NCBI RefSeq assembly: GCF_048403405.1
Contig: NZ_CP183129.1
Direction: 5' to 3' (one strand)
DNA: 64,000 nucleotides
Origin: Escherichia coli
GTDB taxonomy: Bacteria; Pseudomonadota; Gammaproteobacteria; Enterobacterales; Enterobacteriaceae
In this document: positions 18,905 to 56,470 of the stretch, piece after piece
Numbering within the stretch: position 1 is the first letter of the stretch
Layout of the letters: each line of letters opens with the position of its first letter
Translations under genes and position numbers: made by a program
The notes under the pieces: model-generated
Database searches by the model: none
What the model saw: only the letters and a program-made list of their open reading frames with translations
Told to the model about the DNA's origin: nothing

Positions 18905-18908
18905 GTTA

Positions 18909-18942
18909 ATATGCCTGATGGTGTTGCACCATCAGGCATATT
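18909..18942. terminator. Bidirectional terminator between convergent tpx and tyrR
   Basis: Near-perfect palindrome ATATGCCTGATGGTG-ttg-CACCATCAGGCATAT with A/T-rich flanks. Confidence 0.7.
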
Positions 18943-54450: not shown

Positions 54451-55257
54451 ATGATCGAAACGCTGCTTGAAGTGCGTAATTTAAGTAAAACGTTCCGCTA
54501 CCGGACCGGCTGGTTTCGTCGTCAGACCGTAGAAGCGGTAAAACCCTTGAGCTTTACGCTACGTGAAGGCCAGACACTGGCGATCATTGGTGAGAATGGT
54601 TCTGGTAAATCCACGCTGGCAAAAATGCTGGCGGGAATGATAGAACCTACCAGCGGCGAGTTATTGATTGACGATCATCCGCTGCATTTTGGCGATTATT
54701 CCTTCCGCAGTCAGCGTATTCGCATGATTTTTCAGGATCCTTCGACCTCGTTGAATCCCCGTCAACGTATCTCGCAAATTCTGGATTTTCCACTGCGTCT
54801 GAACACCGATCTGGAACCTGAACAGCGTCGCAAACAGATTATTGAAACGATGCGTATGGTTGGGCTGCTACCGGATCACGTCAGTTACTATCCGCATATG
54901 TTGGCACCCGGGCAAAAACAGCGTCTGGGGCTGGCGCGCGCGCTGATATTGCGCCCAAAAGTCATTATTGCCGATGAAGCCCTCGCCTCACTGGATATGT
55001 CGATGCGTTCGCAGTTGATTAATCTGATGCTTGAGTTACAGGAAAAACAGGGCATTTCGTATATTTATGTTACCCAGCATATCGGAATGATGAAGCACAT
55101 TAGCGACCAGGTGCTGGTGATGCATCAGGGCGAGGTTGTCGAGCGAGGCAGCACCGCCGATGTGCTGGCATCGCCGCTGCATGAACTCACCAAACGGCTG
55201 ATCGCCGGTCATTTTGGCGAGGCATTGACGGCGGATGCGTGGCGTAAGGACCGTTAG
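54451..55257 (+). CDS. sapF: ABC ATP-binding protein SapF
   Basis: 268-aa ORF; Walker A GENGSGKST. Confidence 0.9.
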   Translation: MIETLLEVRNLSKTFRYRTGWFRRQTVEAVKPLSFTLREGQTLAIIGENGSGKSTLAKMLAGMIEPTSGELLIDDHPLHFGDYSFRSQRIRMIFQDPSTSLNPRQRISQILDFPLRLNTDLEPEQRRKQIIETMRMVGLLPDHVSYYPHMLAPGQKQRLGLARALILRPKVIIADEALASLDMSMRSQLINLMLELQEKQGISYIYVTQHIGMMKHISDQVLVMHQGEVVERGSTADVLASPLHELTKRLIAGHFGEALTADAWRKDR

Positions 55258-55264
55258 TGTTTTG

Positions 55265-55302
55265 CACCTCATCCTGACAGGGGCCCCCCTCAGGATGAGG
55301 TG
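55265..55302. terminator. Bidirectional terminator hairpin between sapF and the efflux-island MFS gene
   Basis: Perfect 13-bp stem CACCTCATCCTGA / TCAGGATGAGGTG with a 12-nt G/C-rich loop; T-run follows on the plus strand. Confidence 0.7.
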
Positions 55303-55306
55303 TTCA

Positions 55307-56470
55307 TTACTTTTGATTGTCGATTCTGGTGAGAGCAACCAGCAATGCCAGCGTATAACACACCGTAATTGCCAGACTCATTTTTAACAGTGTTTCTCCG
55401 CCAATTCCCGACAATGGCGCGGCTATACCGCCGAAGACAAACATGCTCATCCCCATCAACGCAGACGCCGTTCCAGATTCCTGCGTCCCTACTGCACTCA
55501 TAGCCTCTGCCCCGCCAACAGTGCCGATGCCGCTACAAAATGCGATGGTGAAAAATAATGCCACCAGTGCCGGAATGGGCAATTGTATCCATGCGCATAA
55601 GACCGTGAGCAATGCACACAAAATTGCCGCTATCAGGCCACCTCGCAACAATGTCATCGCGTTAATCCGTCGCGCCAGGCGCGAGAAGATCCATGAAGCA
55701 ATGATAAGTCCGATGCCGTTAAGGCCAAACACCAGGCTAAATTGCATTGGATTAAAGCCAAATTCCTTCTGCAACACGAACGACGAAGAGCCGATATATG
55801 CAAACAAACCGGCCAGCATAAAACTTTGAATCAGGCAAAAGCGCATAAAACGGCGGTTCTGCACCACGCTTCGTCCGGTTAATAGCAATGATGAGCCCCT
55901 TTTATTTTCTGGCAAGGTCTCATTAATAAATAACAGGCAGCCCAGCAACAGTACGGTGCTAATTTCAGCCATTACCCAGAATAAAGTGCGCCAGTCAAAA
56001 GTGCTGACAATGTACCCGCCCAGCACTGGCGACAACACCGGTGCCAGGCCATTCACCGTCATTAACAGCGCAAAAAACTGGGTCAACGTTACTCCCTGAT
56101 ATTTGTCACGAGCAATAGAACGAGAGAGCACCGAACCACCCGCCCCCGCGATCCCTTGAATAAAACGCCAGACCACCAGCCAGTAAATATTGTTCGTTGT
56201 CGCGCACAAAATGGAAGAAACAATAAACAATAGCAACGACAAGATTAACGGACGTTTACGCCCTATTTTGTCGCTCAGAGGGCCAAATAACAGTTGTCCG
56301 ACGCCAAGACCGATCAGTGATGCAGTCAGCGTTAATTGCGTTATGGTCGTGGTTGCCGCCAGTTGCTCAGACATCTCCGGCAAAGCCGGCAAATAAAGAT
56401 CGGTACACATCGGGCCGATACCGGCTAAAAGACCAAGAATCAATGCCCATGAAAGAGAGACTCTAGCCAT
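55307..56470 (-). CDS. MFS transporter, DHA1 (Bcr/CflA-like) drug:H+ antiporter family
   Basis: 387-aa ORF with 12 predicted TM helices and the DHA1-type motif GPLSDKIGRKRPL after TM2; AGGA Shine-Dalgarno inside the 3' end of the upstream OMF gene. Confidence 0.8.
   Translation of the reverse strand: MARVSLSWALILGLLAGIGPMCTDLYLPALPEMSEQLAATTTITQLTLTASLIGLGVGQLLFGPLSDKIGRKRPLILSLLLFIVSSILCATTNNIYWLVVWRFIQGIAGAGGSVLSRSIARDKYQGVTLTQFFALLMTVNGLAPVLSPVLGGYIVSTFDWRTLFWVMAEISTVLLLGCLLFINETLPENKRGSSLLLTGRSVVQNRRFMRFCLIQSFMLAGLFAYIGSSSFVLQKEFGFNPMQFSLVFGLNGIGLIIASWIFSRLARRINAMTLLRGGLIAAILCALLTVLCAWIQLPIPALVALFFTIAFCSGIGTVGGAEAMSAVGTQESGTASALMGMSMFVFGGIAAPLSGIGGETLLKMSLAITVCYTLALLVALTRIDNQK

Follow-up and report, generated by a model that had tools for sequence, protein, structure and literature searches.

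The hairpin between the convergent genes sapF and eefD of Escherichia coli is derived from a palindrome that carries a two-way promoter in related genomes and has lost this promoter here. At about even confidence, we regard it as an orphaned, promoter-dead palindrome of ycjD, which would now serve as a 3' stem-loop without U-tract for the convergent sap and eef mRNAs. The homology of the palindrome among haplotypes, the decay of the promoter elements and the lack of a proper U-tract can be read directly from the compared genomes; from these we infer the origin in a ycjD leader and the role at the 3' ends of the RNAs.

Structure of the hairpin at the sapF-eefD junction

In the window, i.e., the whole 64,000 nt stretch of DNA that was analyzed, sapABCDF is followed by five convergent genes (MFS, OMF, RND, MFP and TetR) and fabI, according to the RefSeq annotation of strain TUM14771, which is 100% identical. 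The five genes, previously addressed as an efflux island, form the published operon eefRABCD, in which eefD is the MFS gene (PMC12817139). The gap between the stop codons of sapF and eefD comprises 49 nt and contains the hairpin as it had been described, with perfect arms of 13 bp and a loop of 12 nt. All features are listed in Table 1.

Table 1. Features of the sapF-eefD junction and its surroundings (positions refer to the window).
Feature	Position	Strand	Remarks
sapF (last gene of sapABCDF)	54451..55257	+	ORF list; RefSeq annotation of 100% identical genome
sapF stop codon TAG	55255-55257	+	ORF of 268 aa
Spacer TGTTTTG, 7 nt	55258..55264		junctions compared side by side
Left arm CACCTCATCCTGA	55265-55277
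ATCCTG, complement of the relic -10 of the reverse promoter	55271-55276		promoter assignment in homologues
Relic -35 CTGACA of the forward promoter	55274-55279		promoter assignment in homologues
Loop/center of the palindrome CAGGGGCCCCCC	55278-55289		former promoter spacer, 16 nt reduced to 11 nt here
Right arm TCAGGATGAGGTG	55290-55302
Relic -10 CAGGAT	55291-55296		CAGAAT in the ycjD haplotype and in E. albertii
Spacer TTCA, 4 nt, from the right arm to the eefD stop	55303..55306		similarity to the ycjD haplotype stops here
eefD (MFS transporter; last gene of eefRABCD)	55307..56470	-	stop 55307-55309; ORF of 387 aa; convergent with sapF
Right end of the eef/ycjD replacement segment	63121..63154		strong similarity to K-12 back at 63154

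When folded as RNA, the 49-nt spacer reaches -29.3 kcal/mol on the plus strand and -30.7 kcal/mol on the minus strand (z-scores of -5.3 and -6.2, respectively), and none of 200 dinucleotide shuffles of the spacer folded equally well. The 38-nt hairpin alone yields -26.8 kcal/mol (plus) and -29.6 kcal/mol (minus). At the DNA level it is the top-ranked inverted repeat of the 64-kb window, in which arms of 19 nt with 89% complementarity and 0 nt between them form a near-perfect palindrome of 38 bp. For any engineering of sapF or eefD it has to be considered that a hairpin of -27 to -30 kcal/mol starts 4 nt from the stop codon of eefD and 7 nt from that of sapF. With a 13-bp stem and a 12-nt loop it lies toward the long end of what is seen for terminators.

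Each of 2043 E. coli genomes contains the palindrome at a single locus. The REP consensus GCC(G/T)GATGCG(G/A)CG matches seven other sites in the window and none at the hairpin, which agrees with the earlier statement that it does not resemble this consensus; together with the single locus per genome this rules out a dispersed-repeat or REP-like family. Assignment to an Rfam family was also rejected, as the best overlapping match was a eukaryotic miRNA model that reached 19 bits (E = 0.98), with the threshold set at 74. An operator of the TetR regulator of the island was discarded, since no related half-site lies near eefR or eefA. Nor is there support for a motif widespread in unrelated bacteria: in a scan of genome contigs for the exact pattern, whose recall is doubtful since it missed the representative genome of E. 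coli itself, the three matches in unrelated MAGs and the two in viral contigs were unrelated to the E. coli element. The G+C-rich ones belong to an unrelated repeat (CCTCATCCTGAGGAGCG...CGTCTCGAAGGAG) and the A+T-rich ones resemble chance terminator hairpins.

The palindrome is shared by the eef and ycjD haplotypes

The eef operon has been reported for the phylogroups B2, D, E, F, and G, for E. albertii and for E. marmotae, whereas ycjD replaces it in the phylogroups A, B1, and C, and eef was inferred to have been lost repeatedly and not gained (PMC12817139). The operon is a marker of the infection-associated phylogroups B2/D/E/F/G; a DNA hairpin is not mentioned in that paper (PMC12817139). 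Among 5426 complete genomes we found the sapF-eefD junction in 2039 and the sapF-ycjD junction in 3375. eefD is present in 2043 and ycjD in 3378 of them, and the two genes are mutually exclusive in 5421 of the 5426. In a rare third haplotype, represented by strain N3, a convergent SMI1/KNR4 gene overlaps the sapF stop codon and the hairpin is absent, which shows that the hairpin is dispensable.

Genomes of the K-12 type, which carry ycjD and lack eef, contain the homologous palindrome 27 nt past the sapF stop codon in the form TCACCTCATTCTGACAA-aagattaaatc-TTGTCAGAATGAGGTGA. Its arms are those of the window except for one pair that is switched on both sides (T:A to C:G). Over CACCTCATYCTGACA, the window and the ycjD haplotype are identical at 14 of 15 positions, to which the mirror arm adds, and both lie at the same place after sapF. 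The 7-nt spacer in front of the left arm is homologous to the first 7 nt past the sapF stop codon in the ycjD haplotype (TGTTYTG vs. TTTTCTG); there, 20 extra nucleotides (AATCCTCCTTCCAGATTATT) follow, which are absent from the window. In a short-word blastn of the 7.8-kb eef segment against the 0.56-kb ycjD segment only the hairpin arms and the two flanks were shared. Remnants of eef genes in the sapF-fabI region of K-12 were searched for by short-word blastn and none were detected.

According to the preliminary description the hairpin marks the left breakpoint of the island, and this is correct in that it borders, on the left, the segment in which eef+ and eef- genomes differ: the homology of the two haplotypes ends at most about 3 nt past the right arm. 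The left breakpoint lies just past this arm, at about 55303, with the palindrome on the backbone side. An island-specific element or insertion scar is incompatible with the homologous palindrome after sapF in K-12-type genomes. The comparison with K-12 that had been proposed in the same description assigns the palindrome to the backbone, and it is likewise found in E. albertii and in cryptic-clade Escherichia. As it occurs in the eef-less haplotype, in E. albertii and in the cryptic clades, it is older than the eef/ycjD polymorphism.

After sapF in Citrobacter, Enterobacter, and one further genus the same hairpin was not found, and unrelated hairpins are located there. Judged by these comparisons, Escherichia has carried the palindrome for long, as a single copy immediately 3' of sapF. 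The picture of the eef junction is thereby corrected, from an insertion scar to a palindrome that is as old as the genus and common to both haplotypes. In addition, the scenario in which eef was lost gains a testable detail, i.e., an ancestor that carried the ycjD module between sapF and eefD. This postulated double ancestor was not observed, as no E. coli genome among the 5426 complete ones has both ycjD and eefD.

The arms are promoter elements in related genomes

What had been overlooked before is that the relatives have a palindromic promoter here, whose -35 and -10 elements correspond to the arms. In K-12, the promoter scan detects CTGACA-16-CAGAAT with a preceding TG on both strands, with the -35 element in one arm and the -10 element in the other. 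By genomic SELEX with the RpoD holoenzyme, CTGACA-16-CAGAAT was identified as the constitutive promoter of ycjD in the spacer between ycjD and sapF (Shimada et al., 2014, PMC3946193). The core that is conserved throughout the genus (CATTCTGACA / TGTCAGAATG) consists of exactly these promoter elements. In E. albertii, which is devoid of ycjD, the two-way arrangement CTGACA-16-TGnCAGAAT is intact and was called on both strands. The genomes of the cryptic clade have a spacer of 13-15 nt, for which the promoter scan gave no match.

Compared with the ycjD promoter of K-12, the arms in the window are homologous and have the same -35 element CTGACA, and the -10 element CAGGAT is a one-base variant. 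However, the spacer has 11 instead of 16 nt, the TG of the extended -10 element is lost and no ycjD follows downstream. For this arrangement (CTGACA-11 nt-CAGGAT without TG) no promoter was called in the window. With a spacer of 11 nt and CAGGAT in both -10 copies the sequence does not fit a sigma-70 promoter, and the promoter is therefore dead.

In genomes with ycjD the left arm provides the -35 element (CTGACA) and the right arm the extended -10 element (TGnCAGAAT) at a distance of 16 nt, and the symmetry of the palindrome creates the same elements on the other strand. In the genome of the window ycjD is absent and the spacer has collapsed to 11 nt. The locus is a clean natural case of a promoter that decays into a hairpin.

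Relation of the palindrome to ycjD

The small gene ycjD encodes a DUF559 protein, a predicted Vsr-like nuclease of the PD-(D/E)XK type (PMC1189080). In most strains the ATG of ycjD lies 6 nt past the -10 element; in K-12 this position reads ATA and the annotated start is a GTG inside the right arm. The distance of 6 nt between the -10 element and the ATG suggests that the ycjD mRNA is leaderless.

Homologues of ycjD with 60-67% identity are found at other loci, in Kluyvera and Klebsiella between the gene of a sulfate-binding protein and yfeX, and in Enterobacter and Phytobacter between hemW/yggM and yggN. In Kluyvera, 44 nt of the leader, among them CATTCTGACAA, could be aligned in register with the leader of ycjD-haplotype E. 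coli (p about 0.0025), and the leader of Klebsiella aligns weakly in the same register. For the spacer of the window, the match to the Kluyvera leader is limited to 9 of 10 positions (CATCCTGACA vs. CATTCTGACA, p about 0.06). The similarity of the Enterobacter leader was not significant (p = 0.16), and this leader has a strong hairpin of its own, with arms complementary to each other; in the Phytobacter leader no left arm is present. A -10-like motif CAGA(A/G)T is common to Kluyvera, Enterobacter, Phytobacter, and E. coli, while Klebsiella has CACTGT, and in all five the motif is located 6 nt before the ATG. The weight of the ycjD-leader origin is carried mainly by one independent locus, that of Kluyvera/Klebsiella. 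Distant DUF559 genes in viral contigs were rejected as relatives in this respect, as their leader is not homologous and only GGGAGAGGG-type repeats are found upstream.

In the window no ycjD adjoins the palindrome and eefD abuts the right arm. Taken together, we regard it as rather probable that the palindrome belongs to the ycjD module and that the copy between sapF and eefD is an orphan.

In IS10 and IS50, transcripts that read in from outside are subject to fold-back inhibition, in which an upstream segment pairs with the region of the transposase start. By analogy, RNA that reads through from sapF in ycjD genomes would pair the left with the right arm, which abuts the ATG of ycjD, and in a transcript that starts internally, at the promoter, the left arm would be missing. 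Unlike in IS10 and IS50, ycjD does not encode a transposase, and the parallel would be limited to the ycjD haplotype.

Variation of the palindrome

In eef+ E. coli the stem is nearly invariant, with differences only in the outer pairs (O157, O145, and strain N44), and within the loop nothing but the lengths of the G-run and the C-run differs. The GGGGCCCCCC version of the window belongs to a minority of about 100 genomes. In E. albertii (eef+) the palindrome reads CATTCTGACAG-ggagataatct-CTGTCAGAATG, with a stem of 11 bp, a loop similar to that of K-12 and unpaired outer bases. In cryptic-clade or marmotae-like genomes, which are eef+, the sequence is GCCTCATTCTGAC(A)GGGG-gaaat-CCCCGTCAGAATGAGGC, and one of them has CTGGCA/GCCAG. 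In E. ruysiae-like genomes, which carry ycjD, the outer three pairs are broken; overall, pairing is lost in the outer three to five stem positions of E. albertii and of an E. ruysiae-like genome.

In an alignment of 15 sequences 91% of the cells are paired, compared to 28-45% after a shift of the partner by 1-3 columns. Of the 14 stem pairs, three are switched in both partners; one-sided changes are absent, and no G:U intermediates occur. By quasipalindrome correction, template switching during replication copies mismatches in a palindrome to the partner arm or erases them from it. The symmetric changes may go back to selection on RNA pairing, to homogenization by template switching or to symmetric silencing of both promoter copies; for the first of these, terminators offer a precedent (PMC5381666). 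The switched stem positions 9 and 13 fall into the -10 and -35 hexamers.

An exact inversion of the 7-nt loop is found in at least 117 complete genomes of the ycjD type, and it follows that events of the template-switch type do occur at this palindrome. Symmetric and seemingly compensatory changes in a palindrome are on their own no proof of selection on RNA structure. The whole element could be a functionless relic of the ycjD promoter or leader, whose arms are kept complementary by intramolecular template switching, a reading that is the main rival of ours but that we consider rather unlikely. It accounts well for the inverted loop, in which the dynamics at the DNA level are directly visible, for the varying lengths of the central G and C runs and the erosion of the loop, for an IS that is inserted in the loop of one genome, and for the absence of one-sided (G:U) intermediates among the three switched pairs. 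The decay of the outer pairs in several lineages and the dispensability of the hairpin in strain N3 point in the same direction, and so does the Term-seq dataset of K-12 (PMC7815308, supplement), which has no 3' end between fabI and puuD and hence none at the homologous hairpin. A low expression of sap could explain that this 3' end is missing. What speaks against a mere relic is a stem that is kept in 2039 of the 2043 eef+ genomes (about 99.8%), and that has also been kept in species which diverged before E. coli although ycjD is absent there. In eef lineages, inner G:C pairs have been added to the stem and the tail has become somewhat richer in U, and the flanking intergenic bases have diverged much more than the arms.

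Termination and RNA 3' ends

The hairpin had been proposed to terminate both transcripts, and we examined it as a two-way intrinsic terminator. The tail on the sapF side (UUCAUUACUUUU) has a T-score of 2.49, in comparison to 3.6-5.5 for model tails, and the tail on the eefD side (CAAAACAC) a T-score of 0.02. Similar values were obtained for the eef forms of E. coli and the cryptic clade, with 2.2-2.5 on the plus and about 0 on the minus strand; the scores are 0.07 (plus) and 1.34 (minus) in E. albertii and 0.67 on the sap strand for the ycjD form. The stability is kept across these forms at -16 to -34 kcal/mol. The terminator scan called the full 13-bp hairpin on neither strand. As no proper U-tract follows the stem on either side, the sequence gives no support to a canonical two-way intrinsic terminator.

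We therefore consider it improbable that the hairpin and flanking U/A tracts release RNA polymerase from either side in a Rho-independent manner. The stable hairpin between convergent stop codons and the moderately U-rich tail on the sapF side would fit such a terminator, and on the plus strand the scan flags a 5-bp sub-hairpin with the tail TGTTCATT. However, next to the score on the eefD side and the failure of the full hairpin on both strands, the flanks on the plus strand have the order U-stem-U and not A-stem-U, the RNA of the minus strand is A-rich on both sides, and the U-richness is not conserved in E. albertii and the ycjD form.

The hairpin may act as a terminator element that depends on the stem and not on a U-tract, and works in both directions. 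As a precedent, two-way terminator elements that encode a hairpin and differ from intrinsic terminators have been described for convergent gene pairs (Ju et al., 2019, as cited in bioRxiv 10.1101/2022.10.23.513370). Such elements are characterized by overlapping, sharply defined 3' ends of the two transcripts and by a release that depends on collision and not on Rho. Like these elements, the hairpin is located where two convergent operons approach each other closely, would form in the RNA of both directions and does not resemble an intrinsic terminator. In contrast to them, the same palindrome persists between co-directional genes (sapF and ycjD).

A second precedent are protective stem-loops without U-tract at Rho-dependent 3' ends (PMC6061677). 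With these the hairpin has in common that it is stable, directly follows a stop codon, has no U-rich tail and is followed by a C-rich and G-poor sequence on the sap transcript. It differs in that it folds on both strands, would serve two convergent genes and can be traced back to a promoter. Past the hairpin, the C/G ratio of the sap transcript is 1.3-2.5 over +1 to +250 with a peak at +126..203, and that of the eefD transcript is 0.9-1.7, where composition is weak evidence in both cases. The C-rich and G-poor stretch on the sap transcript (C/G up to 2.5), 75-230 nt past the hairpin, is compatible with Rho.

REPs have been described as terminator-stabilizers in 3'UTRs (bioRxiv 10.64898/2026.03.23.713779). 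The hairpin resembles them as an extragenic palindrome at the ends of genes, with a proposed dual role in limiting read-through and protecting the upstream mRNA, but it is a single-copy element without the REP consensus.

For the orphaned palindrome as a 3' stem-loop without U-tract, we propose the following mechanism. The remnant would be transcribed at the 3' ends of both sapABCDF and eefRABCD and form, in either RNA, a stem-loop without U-tract whose folding energy is about -27 to -30 kcal/mol. It could act as a pause or collision point for the converging RNA polymerases, and transcripts that read through would probably be ended further on by Rho, in untranslated antisense sequence. The hairpin would block 3'->5' exonucleases, and the read-through transcripts would be trimmed back to it. 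In this manner the hairpin likely defines the 3' ends of both mRNAs. The element is thus of an ordinary kind, with an informative history, and there is little here that would much surprise a specialist.

Possible mobility of the ycjD module

The presence of ycjD homologues at three or more unrelated intergenic sites in different genera raises the question whether the palindrome is the boundary of a mobile ycjD cassette, with the copy in the window being an excision footprint or a site that mediates the exchange of eef and ycjD. The same CCCTCTCCC/GGGAGAGGGTTAGGGTGAGGGG repeats follow each ycjD homologue, there are three alternative contents between sapF and fabI with the left breakpoint exactly at the palindrome, and the predicted PD-(D/E)XK, Vsr-like nuclease (PMC1189080) would suit such a cassette. 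Nevertheless, we judge this to be very improbable. The module is flanked by neither target-site duplications nor terminal inverted repeats, E. coli genomes do not contain a second copy, and in Phytobacter the left arm is absent. The distribution of the haplotypes is explained equally well by their exchange through ordinary homologous recombination in sapF and fabI.

In a broader version, to which we assign a low probability, the palindrome would be the signature end of an unrecognized small mobile cassette of the Enterobacteriaceae that relocates between intergenic sites and leaves solo palindromes as footprints. Such a cassette would consist of the self-complementary two-way promoter/hairpin, a probably leaderless gene of a DUF559 nuclease (Vsr-like, PD-(D/E)XK) and a 3' repeat of the GGGAGAGGG type. 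If this were true, the footprints would be open to co-option as two-way terminators without U-tract between convergent operons.

That the promoter is still active in the window and sends antisense transcripts into sapF and/or eefD is extremely improbable with a spacer of 11 nt (functional range about 15-19 nt), a -10 element CAGGAT without TG and no promoter found by the scan, even though the homologues of K-12 and E. albertii fit an extended -10 promoter in both directions, binding of the RNAP holoenzyme is reported for K-12 (PMC3946193) and antisense transcription at the 5' end of ycjD has been mentioned (PMC12817139).

At the opposite end of the replacement segment, just within its right border, lies a further inverted repeat of 12 nt (63121-63132 and 63138-63149).

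Divergence at the sapF junction and changes in the palindrome loop

The two main haplotypes, with either eefRABCD or ycjD between sapF and fabI, already differ within the end of sapF. Four synonymous differences are found in its last five codons and none in the 44 nt that precede them. The divergence is thus concentrated at the junction, which agrees with old haplotypes that would have evolved separately. Of 5426 genomes, about 5-8 belong to neither. Strain N3 represents a rare third haplotype, in which the interval between sapF and fabI contains a convergent gene of the SMI1/KNR4 family and lacks the palindrome, eef and ycjD. The end of this gene overlaps the sapF stop codon.

The loop of the palindrome behind sapF is altered in two records. 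In L017 the 7-nt ycjD-type loop is the exact reverse complement of that in the ycjD-haplotype sequence L013 (TTTAATC vs GATTAAA). At an identity of at least 99%, the variant recurs in 117 or more complete E. coli genomes whose hosts vary; this rules out an assembly error as its source and marks it, on the sequences compared, as a small inversion between the arms that has been inherited. In L034 the hairpin loop of the sapF-eefD gap holds an insertion sequence that encodes a DDE_Tnp_1 transposase of 396 aa. The end of this element (CTGAGGAATCCCC...), which may resemble IS10-type ends, was also found beside an eefD-like MFS gene in another record, L022.

Coordinates of the features described (L numbers denote compared DNA records)
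Feature	Record	Position	Sequence
sapF 3' end, eef haplotype	window	55243-55257	AAGGACCGTTAG
sapF 3' end, ycjD haplotype	L001 (K-12 type)	3444-3458	AAAGATCGCTAA
Third haplotype, strain N3	L018 (NZ_CP031609)	3036-3700	
Inverted loop	L017 (NZ_CP062855)	175-245	
Insertion sequence in loop	L034 (LR134270.1)	~2340-3670	
Mutated ycjD start	L001	3526-3550	
20 nt peculiar to ycjD haplotype	L001	3466-3485	AATCCTCCTTCCAGATTATT
Palindromic repeats	L001	3870-4090	CCCTCTCCC / GGGAGAGGGTTAGGGTGAGGGG
Same, downstream of ycjD homologues	L047, L049, L051, L064		
Same, upstream	L053-L058		
Partial copy of ycjD 3' end	L001	3925-3968	ggagacggtgctggagaatattcggcaaggtctgaaccg
12-nt inverted repeat, 5-nt loop	window	63121-63149	TCTGTACCGCAG / CTCCGGTACAGA
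Perfect 16-bp inverted repeat, 3-nt loop	window	18908-18942	AATATGCCTGATGGTG / CACCATCAGGCATATT
Separate repeat family	L005	7062-7116	CCTCATCCTGAGGAGCG...CGTCTCGAAGGAG
Same	L045	11705-11759	
Same	L046	3641-3695	

The 5' region of ycjD and the repeats of its family

Comparison of the K-12 type with L013 and L016 shows that the probable ATG start codon of ycjD is mutated to ATA in K-12, and because of this mutation the annotated K-12 coding sequence begins at a GTG within the right arm. All ycjD homologues keep a 6-nt spacing from the -10-like hexamer to the ATG, a sign that the ycjD mRNA may be leaderless. On the minus strand, the 20 nt peculiar to the ycjD haplotype read AAGGAGG. This motif is a strong Shine-Dalgarno sequence and lies a short way downstream of the palindromic promoter's reverse copy; no canonical start codon comes after it. 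It may lie behind the antisense transcription and translation that PMC12817139 mentions for the 5' end of ycjD.

Palindromic repeats of the CCCTCTCCC / GGGAGAGGGTTAGGGTGAGGGG type adjoin all the ycjD-family genes examined: each gene either runs into them or has them at its flanks. The conserved C-terminal PSPRPSP of the family is encoded by the repeat itself. Distant DUF559 genes on viral contigs carry the same repeats on their upstream side. About 50 nt past the ycjD stop codon, K-12 repeats part of the ycjD 3' end, a hint of an old duplication or of a second module that has since degraded.

Similar patterns and other inverted repeats

The CCTCATCCTGAGGAGCG...CGTCTCGAAGGAG repeat on G+C-rich environmental and viral contigs matches the arm pattern by chance and was rejected as a relative of the E. 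coli palindrome, as it belongs to a separate palindromic repeat family. An exact-pattern scan of genome_contigs for the palindrome gave matches in three unrelated MAGs; it missed the E. coli species representative, which was expected to carry the pattern, so its negatives are unreliable.

The 12-nt inverted repeat is located within the eef segment, right by its right-hand end, with the eefR promoter region on one side and the fabI promoter on the other, and only a degenerate version (CCGCAGCCTGCTCCGGT) is present in K-12. The perfect 16-bp inverted repeat ranks second in hairpin strength within the window.
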